A stretch of 64,000 bases of DNA. Source: Oscarella lobularis. Lineage: Eukaryota. The notes below the pieces were generated by a model. It was not told where the DNA came from. It did no database searches and worked only from the letters and a program-made list of their open reading frames with translations. The first letter of the stretch is position 1. Each line of letters starts with the position of its first letter. The DNA lies in NCBI RefSeq assembly GCF_947507565.1, contig NC_089177.1:490648-554647 (forward strand), given 5' to 3'. This document shows positions 9,983 through 40,776 of the stretch, one piece after another. A program made the position numbers and the translations under genes.

Positions 9983-12900
9983 CTAATACTTCCTCCTCCT
10001 TTTGGGTATAAGCTTGTGTTCAACGACGTCGTTAAAGCTAATGGTCGTCGTTCGCTTGCGCTTGGGCCTTTCCGGGGTTACGTAGTAATTCTCCGGCGCT
10101 TTCAGTATTCCCTGATCGTTTTCATCATTCTTTTTCACCAGCCGTCGAGAGCTACGCTTGATATCCATCGCTACAGGAGCGGGATCAACGTTGACCTTCT
10201 TTCCCCGACGAGTTGACTTCGTGGCAGCCGGCATCAGCGCCGCCACATCCTGACCGGCAGCCGTTCGCGATCGAACTCTCGCGCTCCGCCTCAACGTCGG
10301 CGGATTCTCTTCAGCAGATTCCGGTGCAGCGGCCGCTCGCTTCGTCCTCCTCCTCGTCGTCGTCGTCACTTCAGCAGCCTGTTCCGCCATCGTCTCAACA
10401 GCTAGTGCCGCCGTTTGCTTTCTCGTTGTTCTCTTCTTCGTCACTTCAACAGCAACCGGTTTCGCATCAGCAACTGGTGCTTGCTTCTTCGTCGTTCTCT
10501 TTCTCGTTGTCACTTTGGCAGCAGGTTCGGGTACCGTCGCTACTTCAGGAGCTGGTGCGGCCCCTCGTCTCCTAGTCGCCCGCGTGACCCTCTGCGCCGT
10601 CGCTACTCGAACAGAAGGAGCCCGATTTCGCGCCGATCGTCTCAGGACCATTCCGCCGCCACAGTCCGGGATTGCAAAGAGCGCTGACTCAAAGTTCTTC
10701 TCCGGCGAGGCATCGTTCTTCATCTTTGGCATTCTGAACAATCGCGTCAGCCCATCAAACGCCGAAAGCGACTCTTTCTTCTCTTTCAACGGGCTCGGCC
10801 ACTTCGGCGTAGCAAACATAGTCGGGCAGAAATTTGCCTCGACGTCCTCTTGAGCGTTTTTACTCTTTCGCTGCGGCGTCTTGAACAAATTCGCCTCGTA
10901 CACGTCCTCAACGTTGATTTCCGTCGCGACGGCCTTTTCCTCGACGAGACAAGCTCGTTTTGCAACCGGCGACATAACAAAGTCCGAAGATTTGCGACCG
11001 GAAGCGCCGGTAAATCGAAAAACTGGCTTTGTCGTCGTCGTCGTCGTCGTCGTCGGCGGCGGCTTTTTCAATCGTCTCACACCCTTCAATACCTTTCGTC
11101 CGGCAATCTCCGCTTTCTTTCGCGACACCGTCGATCGCATGATCTCTGACCCGTCAACCGTTTCATTGAACGGAATTCTCTCCACCATCTTTACGCGCTC
11201 AATGGCCGCCGCTTTCTTCTGCGCCGCTCGTCGCAGCGTCATTCCGCCTTCGATCGCTTTACGCAGCGGCGTCTGCATCTTTCGTTTTGCGCGTCGCAAC
11301 AGAGACCGAGCCGCCACGCGGCCAATCTCCTCTCGAATCGGAGTAGCGAGACGTTTCTTCTTCTTCAACGATATCCCCGCTTTGATTTCGTTTCTCATTG
11401 GAGTCGCCATCTTTCTCTTCGTCGTCTTCAGTTGGAGTCCCTGTGCAATTGCCTTTCTCAACGGAGTGAGCATACGTTTCTTCTTTGTCTTCAATTCCAG
11501 TCCCTCTTCTATTTCTTTCCTCATTGGCGTATTCATTCGTTTCCTCGTCGGCTTCAAGTTGAAACCCTTTTGAATTTCCTTCCTCATTGGAGTCGCCAGT
11601 CTCTTCTTTGTCTTTCTCAAAGCAACCCCGGCCTTTATTTCTTTCCGAACGGGAGTAGCCATCTTCTGTTTCGTCTTTCTCAAGTCAAGCCCCTCTTCTA
11701 TTTCCTTCCTCATCGGAGTAGCCATTCTCTTCTTCGTCTGCTTCAAAGTCACCCCGGATTCAATTTCCGTTCTAACAGGAGTAGCCAATTTCTTTTTCGT
11801 TTTTCTCAATTCAATTCCCTCTTCTATTTCTTCTCGCATCGGAGTCTCCATTCTTTTCTTTGTTGGCCTCAGTTCAAGTCCTTCTTGAATTTCCTTTCTC
11901 ACGGGAGTAGCCAATCTCTTCTTTGTCTCCTTCAAAGTGATGCCAGCTTCTATTTCTTTCCTCACAGGAGTAGCCATCTTCTTCTTCGTCTCCCTCAATT
12001 CCGTCCCCTTTTCAATTTCCTTCCTCATGGGAGTAGCCATCCTTTTCTTTGTCTCCTTCAATGCAGTCCCTGACTCGATTTCTTTTCTCAGAGGAGTATA
12101 TAGTCTCTTCTTCGTTGGCCTCAATTCGACGCCCTCTTCTATTTCCTTTCTCACAGGCGTAGCCATCTTCATCTTCGTCTCCTTCAAAGGAACGCCCGAT
12201 TCAATTTCCTCGCGCATAGGCGTAGCCATTCTTTTCTTAGTCGCTTTCATTTCCAAACCCTCTTCGATCTCCTTTCTCATAGGAGTAGCCATTCTCTTTG
12301 GAACGGCGCTGCGATCAATTTTTGAGCTATCGGCTTCATCCATTTTCTCATCGTCAAAGTCGAGATGCGGAGGATCCAGCGTTTTCCGGCGAATCTGACT
12401 GCGCTTTGGCGTCTTCAAAAAGCCCGGAGACGATCGTCGGCGTCCATCTGGAGTCCGCCCCAGCTTCACGGGCATCTTCGGTGGAAGATGCTTATCAAAA
12501 TATTCGGGACTCAGCATGGGACCGAAACGAATACTCCGTCGCGGCTCGAAAGCACTTCCGGCATCGACATCATTTACTTGATTCGTGACGTCAACGCTAT
12601 CGGTCTCCATGGAAATGACGTCATCAGTCCCCTCCCCCTCTTCGCACAAGGGCGCAAGCGGACGAAACGAATTGGACGATTTCGGCTTCGGTTTTCTCGG
12701 CGGCGTCGGCGTGCGTCGCTTCTGCTTCGACGACGGTATTTCCTTCAGCGGCGACGCGACGGGGACGTTTTCTCCGGGATATTCGAATCGAAAGTAACGG
12801 TCGGCGATCTTGATCATGTCCTTGTGAGCGAGACGCGCGCGACCCGTCAACGGCTTGTCGTTGACGTACGTATCGTATGCGTTGCTGAGATTCTCGATAT

Positions 12901-19831: not shown

Positions 19832-22800
19832 ATGGGCGACAAGAGCTTCGAAAAGTTTCGCGTCGAGTACGAGAAGCTTCATCGGGCGCTGAAGAAGTCG
19901 CACGACAGCGAAAAACGTCTCATGCAACGATGTCGCGAGCTCAACGCCGAAATCGTCGCCAACGCGTCCAAAGTGAGCCAGGCGCTCAAGATATCGCAGG
20001 AAGATCAGAACACGATAACGCAATTGAAAAAAGTACGAAAAGGCGGGCGCGAATTGAAATGGAAAATTTGATTTTTTTTCCCAATAAAGGAAATCGATAA
20101 AGCTTGGAAAATGGTCGAGGCGTCGCACGACAAGGAGCAGCGCGCTCGCGAGACGATTCAGCATTTGAAGCAGGAGATACAGAATTTGACGCGACTCGTT
20201 GAACAGGGTGCCGGTTTGACGATGGGACAAGAACACAGCGTTCAGGAGCTGCTCAGACTCAAAGACGAATTGACGCAGGATAGAGATGAAAAGTTGGCCG
20301 AAGTTGTTCAGGTACCAGTATCACACTATGAGACCACCACTCATATTACATCGCATTTATTTCTATAGTTGAGACAGCAGCTTGGTGAAGTGACCGACAG
20401 GCAGAAATTCTTAGAGCAGGAGCGCGAAGACACTGAACTGAAAACGGCAGAGGTGGGGATTTTTTATAACCAGGGGTAGCTAAGCTTAGCTGTCATTCTG
20501 CAGCTGAAAGAGGAGATACAGAGGAGGCAGCACGAAGCGCAGAGGGAAATACGAAAGAAGGACAAGTTGGAACGCGAGCTCAAAGTGGCCAAAGTGGATC
20601 TCGATTCGAGAACCGGTGAAGTTAAAGCAAAGCAGTCGCAAGTCCAAAAGCTTCAAGATGACGTGACGAGACTGGAAATGGAATTGAAGGAATCAAAGGT
20701 AAGAAAAGAAGCGGTAAGGATACGTCATTCACAACAAACGCATTTCTTTGGCAGACTTTAAACGAAAGAGCTCAAAAGGACAACGATTCTCTGCATCAAA
20801 AATTAGCTCGAGTCCAGCAAGATTACGAACAGCAGCTACTCAATGCTGACTCTCTGGCTGGGGAAAACGCCCAGCGATTGGCTGAGCTCAAGGCAATGCA
20901 GCAACTTCTATTTTTAGTTGTATTTATTATTATTATTATTATTATTATTTTAGGCGAAGGAAGACGAAGTGTCTTCGATGAGACAGGAGACGAGTCGCGT
21001 TACAAGACAGAAAGAATCGTTGCAGAGAAACCTGAGACGAATCGACGAGCAAAAGATGGACGTTGAAAGAGATCGAGACAATTTGAAGGGCGTCATTCAA
21101 GCTCTCGAAAGAGGTAGATAACCATCCGACTCAACGCCTCTTGAAAAAAATCCACCAATTGGCGAATTTAGAACTGGAGCAAGCGAAGAAGCAAGCGGAA
21201 ATGGACCACAAGTCCTTCGACGATCTAATGAGAGAGAGAGACATATTGACTAAGGTAGCCGTTTTAGAGTGTACAATTGCAATGACGGCAACAGCAAAAG
21301 TCGATTTAGAATTTGAAAAAAGCGGAAGGCGCCACGGAGAAAGCGTCCAACATGGTGAAGCTTCACGAACAGGCTCGAAAGAATCTCGAACAGGAGATAC
21401 AGGTAGAAAAAAAATAAACGTAAGTTCTTTAGCCTCGGCTTCTAGAGTCGATTTCTTTTAGAACTACAAAGACGAGGCGGCGAAGCAACGCAAACTGATA
21501 CATCATCTGGAAAAGGAGCGCGATCGCTACATCAACGAAGCGAGCGACATGACGCAGAAGTGCCTGAAGAGCACGGAAGAGGTGAAGATGCGCGAAATGC
21601 GCATATTCGACTTCAAGAAAAAGATCGCCGAATCGGAGACGAAGTTGAAGCAGCAGCAGAACCTGTACGAAGCGGTGCGAAGCGATCGAAATCTCTACAG
21701 CAAGAATCTGATCGAGGCGCAAGACGAAATAGCCGAAATGAAGCGAAAGTTGAAGATAATGAATCATCAGATCGATCAGCTGAAGGAGGAGATAACGGCG
21801 AAGGAGGCGGCGCTCGTGAAAGAGCACATGGAGCATCAGCGCGTCGAGAAGGAGAAGGAATCGTTGAAGCAGGATCTGATGAAGATGAAGTTGGAGAAGG
21901 ATCGAACGAAGCAGTACATGGAGAGCCAGCAGGCGGAGGAGCGAAAACTCTTGAAGATCATCGCCGAAGCGGATTCGGAGAAGTTGCGACAGAAGAAGGA
22001 GCTCGATCAGGTGATCAACGAGAGGGACATATTGGGGACGCAGTTGATTCGACGAAACGACGAGCTGGCGTTGCTCTATGAGAAGATTAAGATTCAGCAG
22101 TCGACTTTGAACAAAGGTAGGATATATCGATTATTGAACCGGAGGCGCGAGTGAGAACTCTTCCTTATTTTCCAAGGTGAAATACAGTATCGTCAGCGAT
22201 TAGAAGATATACGCATATTGAAGCTTGAGATTAAGAAGCTTCGGAGAGAGAAGGCCATGCTGAGTCGGAGTGTATCCAATGCTGACGAACTCAGGTCTGT
22301 TTACTCTCTGTGTCTTATTAATGGCTATTATTTGCCTTGTTTTCTCAGACGCGAACTCTATCACGCTCAGCGAGAGTTGCTGCGCGAACGAACGCGTTGC
22401 AAGGCGCTGGAAGAGGAGCTTGAGAGCCCGATGAACATTCACAGATGGAGAAAATTGGAGGTGCGCAAAAAGACATGACTCTGTGTTCATATATAGAAAA
22501 TGAGCTTCGTACAATTCGCAGGGAAGTGATCCGAGCACTTTTGAAATGATACAGAAGGTGCAAACACTTCAGAAGCGCCTCATACAGAAGACGGAAGAGG
22601 CGAGACAGCGAAAATGAAACTCTTCACATCGTTATTTCTGATCGTACAGGTCGTCGAGAAAGAGTTGCTGATACAGGAGAAAGAAAAACTCTACGTGGAA
22701 CTAAAGCAAATCCTATCGCGACAACCGGGCCCCGAAGTCGCCGAACAGTTGCAAGTGTATCAGCAGACTCTGAAAGAGAAAACTCGACAGATGAAGGTAA

Positions 22801-30648: not shown

Positions 30649-33213
30649 ATGGCATCGGTGATCGGTCTAAAACCGCTCGAGTACGTTCACATATTGGACG
30701 TTAACACGAGCGTCTCGTATGTGGAAACTGGCCCTCAAACAATATCTCTGCAAGACAACGAACGACTGACGGCGGGCCCCCATCCGTTCGTCGTCGTGCC
30801 CCCGGGTCGTTTCTGCATCGTTGAAGATCCCATCGATGCTACGACGTACGAAAAAGGAAAGCAGCCGCGCGTGCGCTTCGGCTCGCTCGACGTGCGCTTC
30901 CACGGCGAGCCTTTCTTTCTCTATCCGGGAGAACGACTTCAAGGAGCACCCAATTTAGCCAATTACAAGCCGGCACTCAAACCGCTTCCAGTCATAAAAC
31001 CGAACCACGGCCTCCGCCTCCGCGCTCGACACGATCACGTCGACGAAAACGGAACGAAACACGTTGCAGGCGAAGAATGGCACCTGGAGGGTCCCCTCAC
31101 CTACAAACCGACTCCGGACGCGGAAATCGTCGACACGATTTCTCCCGCCATCGTCGGCCCAAATCAAGCGCTTCGCTTTCGCGCGCGCGAGCGTTTCGTC
31201 GATCGCACGGGCGCCGAACGCGTCACAGGCGAAGAGTGGCTCGTTCGCGAAGCGGGCGCCTACGTGCCGCACGTCAGCGAAGAAGTCGTCGGCGTCGAGT
31301 CGGCGCACACGCTCACGCGCGATCGGGCGCTGCACGTGCGCGCGCGCGTTACGATCGACGGCGACTCGGCTCTCGGAAGCGCGCGCAAAACCGGCGAGGA
31401 GTGGCCTGTCACGTGCGAAAACGTATCCACCTTTATACCGGACGTGACGGAGGAAGTCGTCAAAGTCGTCAACAAAACGATTCTGACGAATATTCAATAT
31501 TGCGTTGTCGTCAATCCGGTTATCGACGGGAAAAATCGTCTCAGTCAACGACAGCTGCGTCGAGGTCCCGCCGAGTTTTTCCTATCGCCCGGGGAACACC
31601 TGGAACGCGGCATTCAGTCGGCGTTCATACTCGCCGTCGACGAGGCGCTCGTTCTCCGCGCAACGGAGGCGTTCGTCGACGACGAAACGCATCGCGCGCC
31701 CGGCGATCGATGGATGATCGAAGGTCCGACGTCGTACGTGCCGCCGACTCAAGTCGTCGTCGAGCGTCAATCGAAAGCGATACCGCTGGGCGAGAACGAA
31801 GGCGTTTACGTGCAAGACACGCAGACGGGTGCAGTGATCGCCGTCATGGGACCCCAGTCCTATCTACTCAAAGAACACGAGCAGCTCTTTGAGAAAAAAC
31901 TACCGGACGACGTCGAGGAGATGCTGCGACGCGGCGGCGCCATCGGCGACGACGACATTCGCAAGGTCGCTTATTTCGAATCGTCGATCGATCCGAGTCT
32001 CGTTCGATCCGGTGCGCGCGACGCGACGCGCGTCGTTTCCTATCGTTGCCCGGGCAACGCAGCGGTGCAGGTATACGATTATCAGCGTCGCACGGCGCGC
32101 GTCGTTTTTGGCCCAGATATGGTCATATTGGGTCCCCACGAGGATTTCAATGTGTTGAGCTTGAGCGCTGGGAAGCCGAAGCGTGAGAATGCGCTTCGCT
32201 GTCTCGCGCTCATGCTCGGACCCGATTTCATCACCGACATCATCGTCGTGGAGACGGCGGATCACGCGCGTCTGCGCATCAAACTTGCGTTCAATAATTA
32301 TTTTGACGTGAATTGCGACGACGTGGCGGACGCGGCGAAGATTTTCGCCGTGCCGGATTTCATTGGATTCGCCTGTCGCGACGTCGGGAGTCGCATTCGA
32401 AGTGCCGTCGCGCAGACGCCGTTCGACGAGTTCCATCGGCACTCGTCGCGGATTATACGAGCGTCCGTTTTCGGGCTCGACGCTCGGGGCAAAGTGAAGA
32501 ACGAGTTGCGATTCGCCGCGAATAATCTCGTCGTGACGAACATCGACGTGCAGAGCATCGAGCCCGTCGATCGTCAGATGAGCGATAGTTTGAGCAAGAG
32601 CGTTCAAATGGCTATCGAGATTGCCACGCAGGCGATCGAGCGTCAGGCGTCGCAGGAGGCGCGGAGACGCGAGCAGGAAGCGCGCGGCGTCCTGGAGCGG
32701 GAGAAATTGAAGGGGGAAATGGACGCGGAACGCGCCCGCATGGAGCTCTATGAATTACAGGCGATCAGTGCGGCCGTGGAGTCGACCGGTCAAGCGCAGG
32801 CCGAAGCCCAAGCGCAGGCTGAACGGCTTCTCATCGAAGGCGAGAGTGCGATCGAGTCGACGAAGCTTTTCGCCGAGGCGCAGGATGTTGAACATTCGGC
32901 GCTTCTCGACGCGAAGAAGAGATCGAATGAGGGCGAGTTGGGTTACGTGCGCGCGACGAATGAGCTCGAGTTGGCGAAGGCGAAAGCGTTGGCTGGGATC
33001 GAGGTCGGGAAGTTTCGGTCAATGGTGAGCGCGTTGGGATCGGAGACGGTTGCGGCGATCGCCCGCGCTGGGCCCGAGTCGGACATGCGTTTGTTGAAGT
33101 CGCTGGGGCTGCAGTCAACGTTGCTGACGGATGGGAAGAGTCCTGTCAATCTGTTCAACGTCGCTGGGGGATTGGTTGGAGCCACGATGGCAACGTCAGG
33201 CGATGCCCAGTGA
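30649..33213 (+). CDS. MVP: Major vault protein, intronless.
   Basis: Single 875-aa ORF. The N-terminus MASVIGLKPLEYVHILDVNTSVSYVETGPQTISLQDNERL matches the MVP start [37 protein letters not shown]. MVP repeats, a shoulder and a coiled-coil cap-helix region follow. Confidence 0.9.
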   Translation: MASVIGLKPLEYVHILDVNTSVSYVETGPQTISLQDNERLTAGPHPFVVVPPGRFCIVEDPIDATTYEKGKQPRVRFGSLDVRFHGEPFFLYPGERLQGAPNLANYKPALKPLPVIKPNHGLRLRARHDHVDENGTKHVAGEEWHLEGPLTYKPTPDAEIVDTISPAIVGPNQALRFRARERFVDRTGAERVTGEEWLVREAGAYVPHVSEEVVGVESAHTLTRDRALHVRARVTIDGDSALGSARKTGEEWPVTCENVSTFIPDVTEEVVKVVNKTILTNIQYCVVVNPVIDGKNRLSQRQLRRGPAEFFLSPGEHLERGIQSAFILAVDEALVLRATEAFVDDETHRAPGDRWMIEGPTSYVPPTQVVVERQSKAIPLGENEGVYVQDTQTGAVIAVMGPQSYLLKEHEQLFEKKLPDDVEEMLRRGGAIGDDDIRKVAYFESSIDPSLVRSGARDATRVVSYRCPGNAAVQVYDYQRRTARVVFGPDMVILGPHEDFNVLSLSAGKPKRENALRCLALMLGPDFITDIIVVETADHARLRIKLAFNNYFDVNCDDVADAAKIFAVPDFIGFACRDVGSRIRSAVAQTPFDEFHRHSSRIIRASVFGLDARGKVKNELRFAANNLVVTNIDVQSIEPVDRQMSDSLSKSVQMAIEIATQAIERQASQEARRREQEARGVLEREKLKGEMDAERARMELYELQAISAAVESTGQAQAEAQAQAERLLIEGESAIESTKLFAEAQDVEHSALLDAKKRSNEGELGYVRATNELELAKAKALAGIEVGKFRSMVSALGSETVAAIARAGPESDMRLLKSLGLQSTLLTDGKSPVNLFNVAGGLVGATMATSGDAQ

Positions 33214-33428
33214 TTTTTTATTTCTAGCTGCTGCTGAATAATCAATATGCGTTTAACGGCTGTGCGCTTCTTGTGTTTTTTATTCCCTGCCTCTTTTTTG
33301 CTAAATGCTGGTGAGCACGTGATATGCAAGCATGTGATATGCGAGGACACCGTCATTTGTTGTTTGTGACGTCGGACTTTATTGAGCACGTGACCCCAAG
33401 TTTCCCAACGCGAGTTTGAACGACGACT

Positions 33429-35216
33429 TTGGGCGCCAATAGAGTTATGAGCGACTTCTATGAGGACTTTATTCGGCCCCAGCTAACGGAGCTGATGAAG
33501 AAAATTGACGTTACCGACCATCAAATGTTGAGCTACATGTACCAGGAAAAAATGATAACGGAGGACGACCAACACAATCTGGCAGCCACGTCGCAGATGT
33601 CACCCTCGGAGAAACAAAGATTGTTTTTTCAGACCATTCTAGCACGCGGGCTGGGCTCGGAAGCCAAATTCCGCACGTTTTGTACCGCTTTGACGAAACG
33701 ACGGGGAGCCCACATGGACGATTTGGCTCAGTTGCTTTTGGCCCACGCTAAGCTAGAAGGTAAGCTCATGAATGTGTTGTTCTAACAAGTTAGTGAGGCA
33801 TATCTGCTAGATAGAACACAGCACTCCATGACGTCACGAGGTACCTTACTCTTTTTTATCGCGCTTCGGTACGTGAGGAAACATGACCTGTTGTACAGTA
33901 GGTTTGAAGCGGTCCAGAGCACATGGCGAGTTGCAAACAGCAAAAAAATCAAAGGCTTCTTCACCTGCACCTGAAGGTACCGCAGGCCCGTCATTAGCTG
34001 CGGCGACCATGTTGAATTTAAATCTTTGAGTTTTTTTGTTGCAGATGAACCAGACGGGCCAAGCCGCCGTCGACGCATGAAGCGAAAAAATCCCAGTCGA
34101 AAAGCGATGCGAGAAGGTCGCCGTTCGCAAGAAGCGAAGCGAAAAATTCATCTCTTGGTAGTTTGTGCTCTACCAAAAGAGTTGGAAGCCGCAAAGGATG
34201 CTATAGGAGCACAAGAATGGGAAGAAATCAGGAGTGGAACAATGGGCTATCGCGTCTTTGTTGCTGATGTAACGTGGAAGAATCATTCAAAGAAAAACGA
34301 AATTCGTGTGACTGTAGGAGTTGTAGCTCAATCAAAATCAGGGGGTCAAGAGACTTCCAACTTGCTTGGATCTCTTAACAGTCAATTTGATGTCAATTTT
34401 CTTGCCATGACCGGCTGCTGCGCTGGTGTTGAAGACGTTGACTGCTACAGCGTTATAGTAGCGGATAAGACCACCGCTTTGGAAAGAGAAAAGCATCTCG
34501 AAAGCGCAGTTCAACATCAAGTGGGCCCTGGTGGTGATCTAGAGCACGAATTAATTCAAGCTGTGAATTCACTTCTGATGGATTTGAAGACGTCAGACTG
34601 GCTTGATCCAGAGGTTTCTAGCACTGCTCCACCAAGTCCTCGGCTAGTCCGCGAGTCATTGCTCAAAGCAATTGAGGACAGTGGGAAATCCAGCAAGGAC
34701 GCCATAGAAAAAGCCGTACAGGAGATAAAAAATGTCAACAAAGATATCTACCCAAACATCCTAAATAAGCTCGTCAAAGAAGGCTTGATAGAAAAGCGAG
34801 AAGAAAAAGAGCCTCAGATGCGAATCCTATACTGCCTGTCTGCCGAAGGTGCCAAACACGTTAGTGAGCTTCCCTTCGGTCTTCTATCGCCGGACAAAGA
34901 TCCTTCTGTGCGTGTAACGACACTGTTCACGTGTCAGGACGTTCTCGTCAATCTTAAGAGTGTTCTTCCGAAATTGAAGGAAGCCACAGGCCAACGAAAG
35001 ATAACCGGTGTTGACATGGAAGCTCATCATTTTATGGTGCAGGCAAAGCATTTTTTCCCCAAGTCTTCGTGCATTGTAATGAAAGGGGTTTCTGACCACG
35101 GATCGCCAGAATCAAAAGAAAAATACAATCAAGAGTATGCGTCCAAGTGTGCGACATTGTTTTTGAAGTATTTCTTGGAAAAGAACTTTGAGTATCTGGA
35201 GAAGAAAAAGAACTAA
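33429..35216 (+). CDS. CARD (death-fold) - PNP_UDP nucleoside-phosphorylase/nucleosidase fusion protein. Exons 33429-33759 and 34045-35216, joined by a 285-bp phase-1 GT-AG intron.
   Basis: Exon 1 is a CARD-like domain that is about 65% identical to the CARD of the CRADD-like gene at 37338: FYEDFIRPQLTELMKKIDVTDHQMLSYMYQEKMITEDDQHNL...FRTFCTALTKRRGAHMDDLAQLLL. Exon 2 is a PNP_UDP_1 domain: IHLLVVCALPKELEAAKD...VFVADV...VGVVAQSKSGG...FLAMTGCCAGVEDVDCYSVIVAD...ITGVDMEAHHFMVQAK...CIVMKGVSDHGS. MTAN-type catalytic E/E/D positions appear conserved. The splice frame was verified: G + at gives GAT. Confidence 0.7.
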
Positions 35217-35316
35217 TTTTTTTGACTTTTGATGTCTTTGCGTTTTTGCTTGCTCGTTGCACCTTGTTGCGCTCCCATTGGTACAGGTATGGATACAAGG
35301 CTGAGCATGCGCAAAG

Positions 35317-37233
35317 ATGGACGCTATTTTGAGAAAGAACTTCGTGTTTCTGCGTCGCAATCTTCGCCTGAAGAAGGAATTGTTAGCTTATATGTTTCAG
35401 GAACATTTAATCGATGACGAGGAATATGATCAGTTGGAAAACGAAGCCAAATCAGAGCCGGAAAGAGTTAGGTACTTCATTATGACGGCAATGAGAGGAA
35501 AAACGAAGTCCGATTTACGAAGACTCGTTCAAATGCTCAGAAAAACAAACCAAGAGCCAGTCGCTCACCGTCTCGAACGTGCAAACGTCAGAAAAAAGAA
35601 ATGGTCGAAACGACTGAGGAAAAGGGCGATGCCTTACCTTTCTAGTCTGGTAGTATTTGTGTTTGTACACAAGTTGCTCTGGCGTACGTACCAGGCGAAC
35701 AAACCGCACGTTGAAAAGGTCCTCAAAATAATCTTCGGTAAAAGGCCAGAAATTAAAGAAGGAATTATGCCGGAGAACTCCAATAGCGACACTTCTGACC
35801 CATCAAAAAACCACACACTTGAGATTAAGGAAAGAGTAAAACTGCGCTTTTATTTTCCAAATCTACCAAAAGACACCTACAAAATAGTGGAAGAAGGTCT
35901 CCGATCCAGTCTTTCACTTTCTCTGGATCTTCCCAGAGACCTCTTAGAGGTGTTTGCAAAACCGTTTTCGTCAGTTCTTGTCATTGTCATTCTACCTGGC
36001 GCTGCTGCGCTGAAATTGTTTTCCATTTTGTCTAAGCCTCTACCTAATTTTCTGTATGAAAAATACGGGCCAACTCGTCTTAAGATTGAGAGTTTGCGCC
36101 CAATGAATATTTTATTTGAGAAGGCTTTTGGTATGTAACTTGTCAGAAGATAGAGTATAACAGTACATTTTCTATTTCCTGTAGAGCGGAACTGGGGCTC
36201 ACGAGCTTGGATCCAAGGTCAAGTGGCCCGTCTAAACGAATGTAGGAAAAATTTTCATCAACTCAAGACTCAGTTATCTTACTGGCTACCCCCTCCGTGG
36301 TGGCAAAAAGCAACAAAAAACCGTTTCAGGAAATTTCAGAGTCAACTGGATCACGTTCAAGATGAAATGCAGGCCTTGAAGGACAGTTTCAGCAAGCTGA
36401 GTCTCCTGCCTAAACCCCAGGCTGTTGAAGTTTCTACGCAAACCGAATTACAAGAAGGTACAGGGAACGCCTAGTAGGTGCAATGATTGATTAATTAGTT
36501 ATTAATCCTAGACGATGGCAGATGGTCAGAGACAATAATGTTTCGGGAGTCTTTTTCTCCACAAAGCGGTTTTGCCCTAATAATTAACACCGTTTCACCT
36601 GAAAGTGAATTACATTCTCAAGCACAATCAGAGACAAATAGTCTTCTGTCTACGTTCAAAAAGTTGGGTCTTGTTTGCAAAACAGAAACAAGCGTTAAAT
36701 CAGGTGACGTGAGCGATACACTCGAAAATTTTGGCAATTGCGACTACGCAAAGTACGACTGGCTAGTGTGCTGTCTCCTGGTAGCCATGGAGAAGATGAA
36801 AACAGGCCGTGACTCAGCGGAAGACTGCTCGCCTCTGTGTCTTCACGACATTATGGCGCCGTTTAGAGAATCTAGATGCCCTACCCTTAGTGGAAAGCCT
36901 CGCGTTTTTATTATCATTTCGCCAGCTGGAAGGTCAATTGATGAAACTGGCGATATGCACGTGGAATTCAAAGACGATGAATGGACTTTGCGAGAGGGTT
37001 ATGTTCCCAAAGACTGCCTGCTGCTAGTGTTTCATTACCCCGCTCCAGAGGACAAGCGCTCTTCTTTCGCTACATCATTGCTTGATAATCTACAACAACA
37101 AGGTGGGCAGTTGAACGATGTGGAAGAACTGCTCTTTATGGCATATGATCAACTAATTGATAGTCTGCTTTGGTCTTCGGTGTGGAGTAAGAATACGTTG
37201 AGTAAGGCAATAGAGGTGGCTCTTGAGACTTGA
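35317..37233 (+). CDS. CARD - coiled-coil - caspase-like (peptidase C14 fold) protein that lacks the catalytic dyad, i.e. a pseudo-caspase. Exons 35317-36130, 36185-36457 and 36512-37233, all joined by about 54-bp phase-1 introns.
   Basis: N-terminal death-fold: ILRKNFVFLRRNLRLKKELLAYMFQEHLIDDEEYDQLENEAKSEPERVRYFIMTAMRGKTKSDLRRLVQMLRK. Middle exon is a coiled coil. Last exon aligns to caspase p20/p10: GFALIINTVSPESE...LLSTFKKLGLVC...YDWLVCCLLVAMEK (AME where caspases have SHG) ...RCPTLSGKPRVFIIISPAGRS (SPAG where caspases have QACRG). Donor, acceptor and phase were checked at each junction. Confidence 0.65.
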
Positions 37234-37337
37234 CAAGTTCTACATTTTTTTGCGCGATGATGTTTTATAGACTTTTTCAGACTTTTATTTTGCCCATTGG
37301 AGTTGAAGGGGAGCACACGTGATCTGCTGCGAGGACT

Positions 37338-37946
37338 ATGAGCCGCTACTACGAAAAGTGCATTCGGCCTCGACTAACGGAGCTGATGAAGAGAATCGAC
37401 GTTACTGATCATCAAATGCTGAGCTTCATGAACCAGGAAAAGATGCTGTCGGACAACGACCAACACAATCTGGAATCCACTTCCCTGATGCGACCCTCTG
37501 AGAAAGATAATCTATTCTTTCACACCATTCTAAGAACCGGACTGGCCACGGAAACTCAGTTCCGCGCGTTTTGCGCCGCTTTGACGAAACGACGAGGAGC
37601 CGAAAAGGACGATTTGGCTCAATCTCTTTTGAAAGGCGCCGGCCTCGAAAGTGAAAGCGCGTCGCGTACTTCGTTTGAAAGGAAGCCAACTTCTAAAGAG
37701 CTGAACAACTTATCGAAGCTAATAGCGAGCGACGACATGTGGAAGCCGCTCGGCAGATGTCTCGATGTTCCGGACTCGAAGTTGACCGAAATCGCAGCCA
37801 CGCATCATTCTCCTCGAGAACGAGCGTACCAAATGCTACAGTCGTGGGTCGAAAAGAACTCGAACGCCGCAACGGTGAAACTACTGTGCGAAGCACTCTG
37901 TGAAGAGGGTCGCGACGATACGGCAAAGGAAATTTTTGGCTGGTGA
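37338..37946 (+). CDS. CRADD: CRADD/RAIDD-like adaptor (CARD + death domain), single exon.
   Basis: 202 aa. The N-terminal CARD is a paralogue of the CARD at 33429. The C-terminal death domain reads ELNNLSKLIASDDMWKPLGRCLDVPDSKLTEIAATHHSPRERAYQMLQSWVEKNSNAATVKLLCEALCEEGRDDTAKEIFG. Size and architecture match human CRADD (199 aa). Confidence 0.65.
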   Translation: MSRYYEKCIRPRLTELMKRIDVTDHQMLSFMNQEKMLSDNDQHNLESTSLMRPSEKDNLFFHTILRTGLATETQFRAFCAALTKRRGAEKDDLAQSLLKGAGLESESASRTSFERKPTSKELNNLSKLIASDDMWKPLGRCLDVPDSKLTEIAATHHSPRERAYQMLQSWVEKNSNAATVKLLCEALCEEGRDDTAKEIFGW

Positions 37947-38158
37947 CGATCGAGCATGCAGACGCGGAATATCGCGGCTTCGTTTTGTGTGGTAGAATTC
38001 TAAGAAACGCTATCTGATGAGGGAAAAAAAAGGAAAAGAACGCACGCAGAACCCCAGGACAACCACATACATTACATAGAATAAGAACGGTAAGATTGAA
38101 GAACGGTAAGAAAAGTTGGTAGTCATAGTTCTTATACGAGTTTTGTTTTTCTCCGCGA

Positions 38159-40776
38159 TCAAGACGCCGTTTTTGTCCAGCTAGGAACTCCGTATGCCGG
38201 ATCGTCGACCGCACTCTGCTTCAGCCTATTTCCGGCCATCATATCGTCCGCCGTCACTTCGCTATACGCTTCGTCGTCCTCTTCACCGTCATTCGTAACA
38301 TTGATGTATCCAGGTTGATCCCTAGCCACATCCTCGTACGCTCCTAGACCTTCTTCCTCAGGAAAATCGACGTTGTGATACGGTATTCTTCCTCTTGCTC
38401 CTGCCGCCGCAGGAGCAATCGGTCTGTCCTCGGGATAGTTAACGTTGAAGTAAGGCGGATTATCGGCGGGCGGCATCTCGTACGGCGATTCCTGAGTGGC
38501 AAAACGTCTTGGCTTAGGAATCGTCGCGTCATCAATCGTCATTTCGTCCAAAATACTATCAATGACGTCAATTTCCTCCTTGCTAATCGTTAAGGTTTTG
38601 TTCGACGGCGTAATTTGTCGGGGCATCGGAACTGAAGCGGACGCCGCAATCGCCGCCGCAACCGCCGCTCGATCGGTACTCAGTTTTCGTTTACTTGTCG
38701 GAAACTCGTCCCTCGCTAATGTACTGTAAGGACTCATAGTGCGATTGGCATGTTCGGCCAGACCGGCCATTAGGTCGTCGAGCTCAGCGTCGTCATAAAG
38801 CGGGGCGTCATCGTCAGGAGCAACAGCGGCGACGGCAGCGGCGGCGACTTTCTCGTTCGGAAGAACCAATCGATCGTATCCGACAGATCCTCTCTTCGGT
38901 TTGGGAGGAACGACTTTTTCTTCTCTCGGTGGCAGCGGATTTTTCTTCGGCGGAGGAGGTTGATGCCGCGGCGGTGATTCCGCAATTGCAAATTTTCCGT
39001 CGCCAGCCGAAAAGAGAGTATCGTACGGCGTGACCGGCTTCACCGCACCGGCGTCAATCTGATCCTCCGTTTCGTAAAAGTGCTCTTCAGGATTTTCCGG
39101 AATCGACGTCGTCTCGTTGACCGTCACAGTCTGAACAAATCGCTGTTTGAGGGAACCGTGCGACGGCACCGCAGGCGGCTCCGTCACTGTACTTGAACGC
39201 GGTTTAGCTACAGGGGGAACGGGCTGCGGTGCTCTTGCACTCCCTGGTCGATTCGGTAGGGGATTTGCTGGCGTCGGCTGCGCTTGTACCATGTCGGCTT
39301 GGCGAAGGCTCGTGTGCTGTTGGGAGCCGATTAGTTTCACGTTGTTGTGCACGTGGTGAAAGATTTCGTTTCCCAGTCGGGTGCCGAAGTAGAAGACGCC
39401 CGGGCCCGTTTCGCATTTTCTGCCCGCTTCGAATGTGAATTTCGTGTAGTCGCGACCGTAGCGTCGCAGATACTTGAGCGGCCAAACGCAGATGATTTCG
39501 TTGGAGAGAACACTGGCAAGAGTTATGTTCAGTCCCGATATGACGAGATGGTATTCGCCGACCAGTTGCAGTGCCGTCGAAGCTTCAGTCGGGATAATCG
39601 ACACACGATAACGTTTTTCTGTAACAAAAAAGGCGTCATTTTGAGGTAAAAAATCTATCCCTGGCTATTTATAGGAAGTAAGTGTACATGTCATTTCTTT
39701 ATATTATTCTGTGCTAGAAACCCGTTCACAAGGGATCTCGTCTTCTTACCAAGCTCCATACTGCTATAAAGCGTGTTCTCCTGGACGCCCAGCGGCTGAT
39801 TGGGAACAAGAAACGGGTTTCCTTCGGGAGGCGGCATCGCCATTTGCGGTTGCGGCTGCACAAAAGGATTACCGGCACCTCCTTCCATTGCAAACGGCAT
39901 TGGTGCTTGCGACGGCGGCTGCAACGCCAACGGATAACCGGCGTCTCTTCCGCCCTGGATTGCAAACGGGGGCGGCGACAAAGGTGGCTTTCCTCCGAAA
40001 CCGTCGCTTGGAGAACCGAACGAACCGAACGAAGAATTCTGAGGTTCTGACATGTATGCGGGTGGCGGCGATCCCGGCGGAAGCGAACCGGCGTCGTCGC
40101 CGAAGGCGACTCGCGATATACCGTCGATCCAAACGTCGAGATCGCGTTGAGTCGGCAGAGCGAATCGATAGTGCAGCACGGGCGTGAGAAGGTCGAGAAC
40201 GAAGCTTTTCGATTTATGCGTCGTCTGATTGACGGCCGTCACTTCGCGCAGGGGAATGATTCGTCGGCTGTTCTGTCGACGAGCGTGGTTCATGTCGGGA
40301 TAGTACTCGAGTCGCGCGCTGCCTAACGAGCCGGCACTGCGCAATACGAACCACCTCTTGTTCCACGTCTATAAAGCGAAAACGTTATTTGTTTGCGGTG
40401 AGAGCCTTTTGATTTCGGGGAAGGACGCGCGGTGGGGGAGGAGTCGCGAGGATAAGATCTAGCTGACCCAAACGCTGCAAAAATGGCAGCATTTGGCTCT
40501 GAGTTTGTTGACTTTATACCCATACCAGAGACTCGGACTTAGTCAACGGACTGGGGGGACTGCGTTGTAATGGGAGGGGCTTCGTGCTTGCAAAACGATC
40601 TATATTTAGTTTTCATTCAGATCTCTTTTTAAGTTTTGCTACGATAGCAGTATTCTTCGGTTTGCTGCTGGAGTGCGCTTTCGCAGGGGATTAGATTTTC
40701 GTTGCCGTTTTACCTTGAAGGCTCCTGGTTGTTGAGGGCATTTTTCCATGTAGCCCTCTAATGCCACGTCGGTCAT
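38159..40776 (-). CDS. DOK/FRS-like docking protein (PH + IRS-type PTB). Exons (minus strand): 40714-40776, 39750-40368, 38159-39618.
   Basis: Exon 1 reads MTDVALEGYMEKCPQQPGAFK. Exon 2 reads TWNKRWFVLRSAGSLGSARLEYYPD...FALPTQRDLDVWIDGI and completes the PH domain. Exon 3 is the PTB: VGEYHLVISGLNITLASVLSNEIICVWPLKYLRRYGRDYTKFTFEAGRKCETGPGVFYFGTRLGNEIFHHV. A Pro/Tyr-rich tail follows. Introns are phase 0 then phase 1, GT-AG, verified. Confidence 0.65.

Follow-up and report, generated by a model that had tools for sequence, protein, structure and literature searches.

Three intact genes, referred to here as g1, g2 and g3, were found head-to-tail on the same strand of the genome of Oscarella lobularis, a homoscleromorph sponge, between positions 33447 and 37946 of the 64-kb stretch of DNA that was analysed (hereafter the window; Table 1). 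The distances from stop codon to ATG are 100 bp (g1 to g2) and 104 bp (g2 to g3), in agreement with the spacing of about 100 bp given in a preliminary description of the locus. The architectures proposed there were also essentially those found: a CARD with a PNP domain, a CARD with helical and pseudocaspase regions, and a CARD with a Death domain (DD). Every intron in the cassette is phase 1. Neither AATAAA nor ATTAAA is present in the two spacers, and a scan with a sigma-70 promoter model, which is irrelevant to a eukaryote, returned counts at chance level.

Table 1. Features of the CARD gene cassette, in window coordinates
Feature	Position	Strand	Description
g1 exon 1	33447..33759	+	CARD-like death-fold head (aa 1-104); ends at phase-1 splice donor
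g1 optional mini-exons, phase 1	33811-33840 and 33902-33976	+	Add 35-aa basic linker in NCBI isoform X2
g1 last exon	34045..35216	+	Basic NLS-like linker, then predicted MTAN/PNP-fold nucleosidase
Spacer g1-g2, 100 bp	35217..35316	+	Contains CCCATTGG
g2 exon 1	35317..36130	+	CARD-like head (35317-35589), basic stretch, hydrophobic or alpha/beta middle
g2 exon 2	36185..36457	+	Helical, coiled-coil-like
g2 exon 3	36512..37233	+	Caspase-fold domain without catalytic dyad
Spacer g2-g3, 104 bp	37234..37337	+	Contains CCCATTGG and GAGCACACGTGATC
g3, single exon, 202 aa	37338..37946	+	CARD (37338-37649) and Death domain (about 37704-37937)
Polymorphism island	33000..38500		Comparison of two O. lobularis assemblies

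The neighbouring genes in the window encode major vault protein (MVP), an IRS-type PTB protein, and SLC26, ENTH, ankyrin, RasGEF, Forkhead and KDM8-like proteins, accompanied by a weak PH-like ORF that scores below threshold. Neither a PIDD-like gene (LRR-ZU5-UPA-DD) nor a further death-fold gene was found in the 64 kb, and no STAND-type NTPase or comparable sensor lies among the cassette's neighbours there. In a second assembly (ENA ERZ18545485, loci L001 and L002), the order MVP-g1-g2-g3-PTB gene is the same as in the window; hence the cassette is real, and the assembly duplication that had been entertained as a source of the local similarity can be excluded.

A CARD-headed nucleosidase

The g1 product is 494 aa long, or 529 aa in isoform X2 (P0010), which includes both mini-exons and maps onto the letters of the window with GT/AG borders at each of them. 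Although the Pfam PNP match is below threshold (E = 0.039), homologues and structural modelling establish the predicted C-terminal part as an MTAN/PNP-fold nucleosidase, into which a PadR/MarR-type winged helix is inserted (approximately 34632-34868). The putative catalytic residues E150, E430 (in DMEA) and D455 (in KGVSD) occupy invariant or near-invariant columns of the family and align to the VEME and AMSD motifs of MTAN, the catalytic residues of which we take to be the Glu of the ME motif and the Asp of the SD motif.

In bacteria, homologues of this unit of PNP domain and winged helix are fused to TIR, NB-ARC, the Cap15 cyclic-dinucleotide receptor, Response_reg, bacterial Death-like domain 3 (bDLD3) and EAD2. 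All the significant relatives found for g1 by sequence search are multi-domain proteins with immune-type partners, ZU5 and CARD also being among these, and PADLOC effector models match g1. Other heads found on the same PNP family include a CARD at the Pfam threshold, preceding a PNP domain with winged helix (P0028), ZU5 (P0013) and, in Oscarella pearsei, a dsRNA-type zinc finger (P0031); in further paralogues from homoscleromorphs the PNP domain is N-terminal and a C-terminal tail follows it. By analogy with characterised members of this group, g1 is probably an ATP-destroying nucleosidase, a candidate function whose substrate specificity is not readable from sequence.

A pseudocaspase and a CARD-Death adaptor

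The 602 aa product of g2 matches XP_065828206.1 of O. lobularis exactly, confirming the splice model. The middle of the protein has a Kyte-Doolittle peak at aa 220-238 (nt 35974-36030), and exon 2 gave weak Pfam matches of the coiled-coil type only. The C-terminal domain matches Peptidase_C14 (PF00656) with an E value of 4.7e-10 (40 bits; the threshold is 21.4), and a phmmer search of the PDB retrieved the p20 subunits of caspase-3 and caspase-8 (E = 2e-7 to 1e-5). In these alignments the catalytic His is replaced by Ala454 (36784-36786; LLVA-MEK opposite LLSHGDEG) and the catalytic Cys by Pro500 (36922-36924; IISPAGR opposite IQACRG), whilst the other allele of g2 reads IIAPAGR, again without the Cys. 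As neither residue of the dyad is kept, g2 is, judged from these alignments, a pseudocaspase. NCBI models several spliced isoforms of both g1 and g2; isoform X2 of g2 (P0002; 367 aa), which uses an alternative acceptor at exon 3, lacks the caspase-fold domain altogether.

The third gene has the CRADD-type order of an N-terminal CARD and a C-terminal Death domain in around 200 aa. Its Death domain (aa 123-200; Pfam E = 1.4e-15) has THOC1, RIPK1, NRADD and TRADD as its closest solved relatives, and no CRADD chain appeared among the solved structures matched at E <= 10. The exact g3 sequence is not present among NCBI proteins, and g3 is hence a predicted gene. A word-indexed search of protein sequences yielded no close homologues outside Oscarella.

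Relationship between the CARD heads

The heads are six-helix death-fold bundles for which solved CARDs are the closest resemblance, six helices being evident in the AF2 model of the g1 head. Profile searches bore out the death-fold assignment of the preliminary description in part: CARD was the sole Pfam family matched by the heads of g1 (E = 0.008, 16.6 bits) and g2 (E = 0.011, 16.2 bits), but the curated threshold of PF00619 (23.9 bits) is reached by none of the three, and that of g3, CARD-like by death-fold assignment, had no Pfam CARD match. A profile of six heads matched nothing relevant among PDB sequences.

Pairwise alignment separates the three clearly, with g1 and g3 close, as had been described, and g2 remote. 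The heads of g1 and g3, which lie 3.9 kb apart, are 68-69% identical over 95-104 aa and 78-79% identical over 285-300 nt, in the register 33447 to 37338; the earlier estimate of about 65% for the protein was thus near the mark, but that of 85% for the DNA was too high, and the coordinates given for the repeat were shifted from this register by about 12 nt. The likeness stops at the boundary of g1 exon 1, and the DNA upstream of the two genes is dissimilar (27.5% identity). When g1 residues 1-112 were searched with phmmer against 1.84 billion representatives, g3 alone was retrieved, with no further close relative. The g2 head is a remote relative of the other two (29% identity over 59 aa, BLASTP E = 3e-4; hhalign probability 77%, E = 2e-5), being 24-29% identical to the CARD of g3. 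These alignments identify the CARDs of g1 and g3 as recent paralogues, upholding the duplication originally proposed. As the likeness ends at an exon boundary and all the introns are phase 1, the arrangement fits exon shuffling, whereby one recruitment domain would have been placed on different partners. Strong similarity between CARDs is not itself proof of pairing, known partners such as CRADD and caspase-2 being quite divergent.

Polymorphism and selection

Comparison of the two O. lobularis haplotypes represented by the two assemblies revealed a feature of the cassette that is new here: it is a polymorphism island, coinciding with the three genes. Identity per 500 bp is 87-96% in the island, against 99-100% in most flanking bins. 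The exons of g1 and g2 differ by 4.8-7.7% between alleles, compared with 0-1% in the flanks and 2.2-2.5% in the g1 intron and g1-g2 spacer. Despite 89 substitutions in g1 and 109 in g2, all three ORFs are open in both alleles, and the indels are in frame overall; when the observed numbers of substitutions were placed at random in simulations, the ORF stayed open in 2.8% (g1) and 0.9% (g2) of trials.

Values of dN/dS between alleles are 0.85 for g1, 0.67 for g2 and 0.36 for g3, relative to 0.19 for MVP; within g3, the CARD has a dN/dS of 0.28, indicative of purifying selection. A value near 0.85 equally fits relaxed constraint, a counterpoint to the interpretation favoured below. Differences in g1 exon 1 are concentrated in the first 60 nt, which are 70% identical between alleles, against 98% in the rest of the exon. 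Consequently 9 of the first 21 residues differ in helix 1 of the g1 CARD, including the charge swaps E6D7 to KK and K18K19 to DS. The CARD of g2 differs at 23/95 residues, and the g3 adaptor is conserved. One and the same allele is present on the two contigs of the second assembly. Together with the private CARD common to g1 and g3, the high divergence of the cassette relative to its flanks would suit a linked module of innate immunity or cell death.

Similarity to known systems

The closest precedents for this arrangement are of two kinds. The first is DDAN, the Death-domain-associated ATP nucleosidase (Death-PNP) of Amphimedon queenslandica. The PNP domain of this protein shows cleavage of both ATP and dATP in vitro, as well as toxicity in E. 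coli (Rousset et al. 2023, bioRxiv 10.1101/2023.01.24.525353). Like g1, DDAN and the Cap17/DtcC clade have a C-terminal nucleosidase of the PNP_UDP_1 superfamily with the MTAN/nucleoside phosphorylase-I fold that retains the catalytic Glu and Asp (D353 in DtcC), and in the sponge DDAN this likewise lies behind a death-fold domain. The likeness is drawn at the level of architecture, fold and catalytic residues, and the head of DDAN is a Death domain where that of g1 is a CARD; g1 also differs in having as neighbours a pseudocaspase gene and the gene for an adaptor that shares its CARD.

The second is the effector-associated-domain (EAD) principle of prokaryotic systems, in which an effector and the product of an adjacent gene carry one small adaptor domain in common, a signature of functional coupling that implies homotypic contact (Kaur, Iyer, Burroughs, Aravind 2021, PMC8195603). 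The cassette resembles EAD and bDLD3-PNPase systems in having an adaptor domain common to a PNPase effector and its neighbour, and bDLD3-PNP fusions are among the bacterial homologues of g1. It differs in belonging to an animal genome, with introns, separate genes, a eukaryotic CARD and no STAND NTPase or sensor in its neighbourhood.

Resemblance to animal apoptotic complexes is more partial. The CARD-DD order and size of g3 recall CRADD/RAIDD, and a CARD-headed caspase-fold gene lies adjacent; however, the affinity of g3 stops at the level of domain families, the caspase-fold partner is dead, the paralogue of the adaptor's CARD is on a nucleosidase, and the window lacks a detectable PIDD-like component of the PIDDosome (PIDD1-CRADD-caspase-2). 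The g2 product is similar to cFLIP(L) and other pseudocaspases in its death-fold head, its caspase fold without catalytic residues and its shorter isoform without the caspase-like domain. It has a single CARD-like head, however, in place of tandem DEDs, and an additional hydrophobic and helical middle of approximately 270 aa. DDAN and the EAD rule are a better analogy than the PIDDosome.

Discussion

We favour, with a probability of roughly 0.5, the interpretation of the cassette as a compact three-gene death-fold module, in which g3 would recruit g1 through their shared CARD and g2 would act as a modulator.

The strongest of the alternatives, though we consider it rather unlikely, is that the linkage is a functionless accident of history, tandem CARD copies having been captured by neighbouring effector exons to give three proteins that now act in unrelated pathways. 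An origin in local shuffling is clear from the exon boundary and intron phases, and neither the closest PNP relatives in Corticium, around which no comparable gene cluster was found, nor the second PNP gene of O. lobularis, located elsewhere, has such neighbours. Against this, the g1 and g3 CARDs have been kept at 68% identity, with that of g3 under purifying selection; one polymorphism island spans all three genes, suggesting co-inherited haplotypes; and an adaptor shared between neighbours is a recognised coupling signature in prokaryotic systems (PMC8195603).

The divergent haplotypes might instead be maintained by balancing selection, the cassette being a supergene for self/non-self discrimination (allorecognition) or for an arms race with pathogens, in which variants of the CARD surface would set the pairing of adaptor and effector. 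Such a role, which would refine the favoured interpretation rather than exclude it, would accord with the coincidence of the island with the cassette (5-8% divergence, against 0-1% in the flanks), with the altered charges of the g1 CARD and with a variable g2 CARD beside a conserved adaptor. We nonetheless regard it as improbable: the comparison involves two haplotypes only, a single allele occupies both contigs of the second assembly, and the sponge allorecognition genes known to us so far are of other kinds.

Similarly doubtful is the suggestion that these are lineage-specific genes drifting towards loss under relaxed constraint. This would account for the allelic divergence, the dN/dS of g1 and g2, the loss of catalysis by g2 and the result of the word-indexed search, but it sits poorly with open frames in both alleles (simulated frequencies of 0.028 and 0.009), in-frame indels, the presence of E150, E430 and D455 in both alleles of g1 and the several modelled isoforms, and with g1 and g2 exons that diverge more than the adjacent intron and spacer, contrary to neutral expectation.

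As for the PIDDosome-like apoptosis module of the preliminary description, in which g3 would bridge a PIDD-like Death-domain sensor to g2, as CRADD bridges PIDD1 to caspase-2, with g1 as a side branch, it retains its architectural basis (adjoining genes, the CRADD domain order of g3, and a CARD-like head with a genuine caspase fold in g2), but we find it hard to credit, since proximity-induced proteolysis by g2 is impossible with the catalytic His and Cys replaced, the g3 CARD is 68% identical to the head of g1 and far less so to that of g2, the g3 Death domain has no special affinity with CRADD, and the 64-kb window yielded no PIDD-like gene.

Under the favoured interpretation as a three-gene module, the CARD-coding segment would have been duplicated locally, and phase-1 introns would have linked it to the exons of different effectors. 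A Death-domain sensor or receptor encoded elsewhere may oligomerise the Death domain of g3, whereupon the clustered g3 CARDs would nucleate, or co-polymerise with, the near-identical CARD of g1. The resulting proximity or oligomerisation would activate the g1 nucleosidase, which, if it acts as Cap17, DtcC and the sponge DDAN do, may release adenine from ATP and dATP, thereby causing cell death or arrest. Being unable to cleave, g2 would serve as a regulator or scaffold with a cFLIP-like logic, acting either on the CARD assembly via its own distant CARD or on true caspases via the dimer surface of its caspase fold, and its isoform without this fold may adjust the regulation. Hence, by analogy with these systems, it is likely that the nucleosidase g1, rather than a caspase, would be the executioner of this sponge cassette.

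Organisation of the cassette

The host is a eukaryote, the homoscleromorph sponge Oscarella lobularis, as established by an exact-sequence look-up of the open reading frame (ORF) upstream of the cassette, which encodes the major vault protein (MVP; XP_065828200.1). The cassette itself consists of three genes lying head to tail on the same strand: g1, encoding a CARD joined to a nucleosidase of the MTAN/PNP fold; g2, with a CARD-like head and a caspase-like tail; and g3, encoding a CARD and a Death domain. The tandem arrangement proposed in the preliminary description, with spacers of around 100 bp, is borne out by intact models of all three genes, separated from stop codon to ATG by 100 bp (g1-g2) and 104 bp (g2-g3). 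The ORFs are spliced at GT/AG sites, and every intron of the cassette genes is in phase 1. NCBI models exist for both g1 and g2; g3 in its exact protein form is found only in ENA-derived gene calls and is absent among NCBI proteins. As a separately expressed gene g3 is thus putative, and the reference annotation may lack it or place it inside the UTR of a neighbouring gene. The order MVP-g1-g2-g3-PTB gene recurs in a second O. lobularis assembly (ENA ERZ18545485, loci L001 and L002), and an assembly duplication, originally named as the finding that would undo the description, is therefore ruled out. No further copies of any cassette domain were found in the 64-kb window, and a tRNA scan of it found no tRNA.

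Elsewhere in the window, about 11 copies of a 63-nt (21-aa) tandem repeat, with higher-order periods of 126 and 189, form an array that coincides with a region of strong GC and AT skew. The array lies in an ORF of 955 aa that carries a PP1-binding motif. Marked strand asymmetry is also seen in a separate interval (GC skew +0.195, AT skew +0.308).

Coordinates of features in the window, and divergence between the two O. lobularis assemblies
Feature	Window coordinates	Description	Divergence
ORF containing the 63-nt repeats	9983-12850	minus strand
Region of strong GC and AT skew	10001-12000
63-nt tandem repeat array	11385-12298
Interval of marked strand asymmetry	20001-22000
MVP gene	30649-33213	upstream of cassette; intronless single ORF, 854 aa	1.05%
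Polymorphism island	33000-38500	aligned to L001 5635-10858
Motifs upstream of genes	33313-33393, 35274-35281, 37293-37323
g1	33447-33759 + 34045-35216	494 aa; GT/AG splicing
g1, first 60 nt	33447-33506	CARD helix 1
g1 exon 1			7.7%
g1 intron			2.5%
g1 PNP exon			5.6%
g1 isoform X2, mini-exons	33811-33840, 33902-33976	NCBI protein P0010; g1 model plus these exons, 529 aa
g1 winged-helix insert	34632-34868
g1-g2 spacer			2.2%
g2	35317-36130 + 36185-36457 + 36512-37233	602 aa; identical to XP_065828206.1	4.8-6.4% (exons)
g2 middle region	35590-36457	aa 92-362
g3	37338-37946	202 aa; intronless	2.6%
PTB gene			0.76%
Farther flanks			0-0.15%

Relationship of the CARD heads

Pairwise alignment of the N-terminal heads places g1 and g3 close together, as first described, with g2 as a remote relative (29% over 59 aa; hhalign probability 77%, E 2e-5). 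A gapless alignment of the g1 head with the g3 head, beginning at each ATG, gives 68-69% protein identity across 95-104 aa and 78-79% DNA identity across 285-300 nt; the likeness reported earlier is thus real, but its nucleotide figure of 85% was too high and its coordinates were slightly off. The pair is private: in an exhaustive phmmer search of 1.84 billion representatives, residues 1-112 of g1 matched g3 alone. With g1 and g3 as queries, word-indexed protein searches returned allelic copies only, a profile of six CARD-like heads gave only chance matches against PDB sequences, Foldseek of a CARD-only model gave nothing significant (the top-ranked structures being the MAVS and RIG-I CARDs), and none of 353 pattern matches from a metagenome scan with the CARD alignment was confirmed.

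The g1/g3 likeness falls off at the boundary of g1 exon 1, with none upstream of the genes, which, together with the order kept in two assemblies, upholds the proposal of domain shuffling among linked genes. Such local shuffling could have left products that are functionally unlinked, and genes resembling g2 and g3 are indeed absent around the closest PNP homologue in Corticium candelabrum; we consider this reading unlikely.

The Death domain and the pseudocaspase

Pfam identifies the tail of g3 as a Death domain (E 1.4e-15) and that of g2 as a caspase fold (4.7e-10), the latter alignable to the p20 of caspase-3 and caspase-8. Because Ala454 and Pro500 replace the catalytic His and Cys, g2 is a pseudocaspase; its NCBI isoform X2 (367 aa) drops the caspase fold. 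The original interpretation of the cassette as a PIDDosome-like module fits in outline, but the nearest solved relatives of the g3 Death domain are those of THOC1, RIPK1, NRADD and TRADD, not CRADD, and g2 is without the catalytic dyad, leaving a PIDDosome very unlikely.

The part of g2 between head and caspase fold comprises a stretch of basic residues, a segment of strong hydrophobicity and then an exon of helical character. This middle region (aa 92-362) gave no family match; the hydrophobic segment (aa 220-238, VLVIVILPGAAALKLFSIL) sits in an apparent beta-alpha-beta-beta-alpha-beta pattern, and the region may form either a membrane anchor or a small domain of alpha/beta type (RRM/TRADD-N-like).

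The nucleosidase and its relatives

The g1 nucleosidase retains catalytic-type residues and is matched by PADLOC effector models. Its nearest relatives are all homoscleromorph (three C. candelabrum and two Oscarella pearsei proteins, and the product of another O. lobularis gene, XP_065844439.1), and the homoscleromorph effectors combining PNP with a winged helix form a small family (protein sequences P0242, which is XP_065844439.1, P0235, P0237, P0239 and P0031) in which partner domains and orders vary. Some relatives begin with PNP followed by a C-terminal tail, and P0031 has a dsRNA-type zinc finger with PNP; another protein, P0013, joins ZU5 to PNP. Among PNP-plus-winged-helix proteins from identified sponge species found here, g1 alone has an N-terminal CARD; one unplaced protein, P0028, combines a threshold-level CARD with PNP and a winged helix. 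In the other homoscleromorph PNP proteins the tail at the C-terminus resembles a Death domain by eye, but it gave no Pfam match and aligned to the g3 Death domain with an hhalign probability of only 9%. The only match of g1 in a phmmer search of PDB sequences, to Talin, was judged to be chance.

The winged helix, of PadR/MarR type, is inserted in the nucleosidase fold of g1 and is also present in its sponge and bacterial relatives. In view of this insert and of the basic, NLS-like linker of g1 (aa 110-138), one may ask if the enzyme is controlled by binding to nucleic acids.

Bacterial PNP-plus-winged-helix relatives are fused to TIR, NB-ARC, Cap15 cyclic-dinucleotide receptor, Response_reg, bacterial Death-like domain 3 (bDLD3) and EAD2 domains; bDLD3-PNPase fusions have been described by Kaur et al. 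(PMC8195603). The PNP domains of Cap17 and DtcC cleave ATP and dATP in phage defence, as does that of the Amphimedon Death-PNP protein DDAN in vitro (Rousset et al., 10.1101/2023.01.24.525353).

A polymorphism island over the cassette

Between the window and the second assembly, treated here as two alleles, identity across the island is 87-96% per 500 bp, against 99-100% in most flanking bins. The island sits exactly over the three genes, and this sharp coincidence suggests ongoing selection. The g1 intron and the g1-g2 spacer are less diverged than the exons of g1 and g2. In the 3' half of MVP, leading into the island, allelic divergence is already raised (approximately 1-2%).

Values of dN/dS between the alleles are 0.85 for g1, 0.67 for g2 (0.85 in the CARD and 0.94 in the caspase fold), 0.36 for g3 and 0.19 for MVP. 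Within the g1 CARD exon, variation is concentrated in the first 60 nt, where allelic identity is 70%, as against 98% for the remainder. Of the 21 N-terminal residues nine are altered, and the alterations include charge swaps (MSDFYEDFIRPQLTELMKKID versus MSSYFKKCIRPRLMELMDSID). A clean gene-conversion tract between g3 and g1 was rejected, the variable 60 nt being a mosaic that matches g3 at seven versus eight sites in the two alleles.

Drawn from two haplotypes only, this pattern speaks for selection of a diversifying or balancing kind. A supergene for allorecognition or an arms race would be in keeping with it, and would refine the adaptor-nucleosidase model set out below, not replace it; the chance of this is slight. 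Decay of the cassette genes might also raise dN/dS, but is highly improbable: all ORFs are open in both alleles, indels are in frame overall, and random substitutions simulated at the observed numbers leave the ORFs open in 2.8% (g1) and 0.9% (g2) of cases.

Spacers and transcription

Both spacers are shorter than a 3' UTR, promoter and 5' UTR of usual size and contain neither AATAAA nor ATTAAA, features that would fit transcripts that overlap or read through but are no proof of them. The E-box core GAGCACGTGA occurs twice upstream of g1 (two of 100 shuffles reach two matches), and the inverted CCAAT CCCATTGG in both spacers (three matches in the window versus 0.93 expected); these recurring upstream motifs have a frequency near chance. 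A near copy of GAGCACGTGA, GAGCACACGTGATC, lies upstream of g3. A sigma-70 promoter and terminator scan, inapplicable to a eukaryote, gave counts no higher than expected from shuffling and was set aside.

A proposed mechanism and its significance

Death-fold adaptors are usually viewed as feeding caspases or kinases. In the model that we prefer, with a probability of about 0.5, g3 would instead be an adaptor that recruits the g1 nucleosidase; the interactions, substrate, trigger and role of g2 are all ones that we infer. A Death-domain sensor encoded elsewhere would engage the g3 Death domain, and the g3 CARD would nucleate the near-identical CARD of g1, the induced oligomerisation switching on the nucleosidase and depleting ATP and dATP, with g2 as a putative non-catalytic modulator.

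A bolder version, which we hold to be quite unlikely, would make the cassette the animal equivalent of a defence island in bacteria: a co-inherited unit of adaptor, effector and regulator, built on the rule that neighbouring genes with one common adaptor domain are functionally coupled (Kaur et al., PMC8195603). Its haplotypes would be kept by balancing or arms-race selection, the charge swaps in helix 1 of the g1 CARD and the g2 CARD variants setting pairing specificity or evading pathogen inhibitors, and cells would die through ATP depletion, not caspase proteolysis. If true, a CARD death pathway independent of caspases would exist at the base of the animals.

Death-fold-PNP fusions, CARD-Death domain adaptors and pseudocaspases are already known kinds, and the advance therefore lies in their combination and evolutionary signature, not in a new principle. 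Among death-fold-PNP effectors g1 is a CARD-headed member, and the polymorphic cassette described here unites it with a matching adaptor and with a pseudocaspase. A CARD-Death domain adaptor is thereby linked, in an early-branching animal, to a nucleosidase with the same CARD, from a family with ATP-destroying bacterial and sponge members. For population or allorecognition work on sponges, the polymorphism island offers an entry point. If the g1/g3 pairing is real, the three genes would provide a system in which to ask whether CARDs in animals trigger ATP depletion as a means of killing cells or countering viruses, and whether the bacterial shared-adaptor rule for neighbouring genes survives in metazoan genomes.
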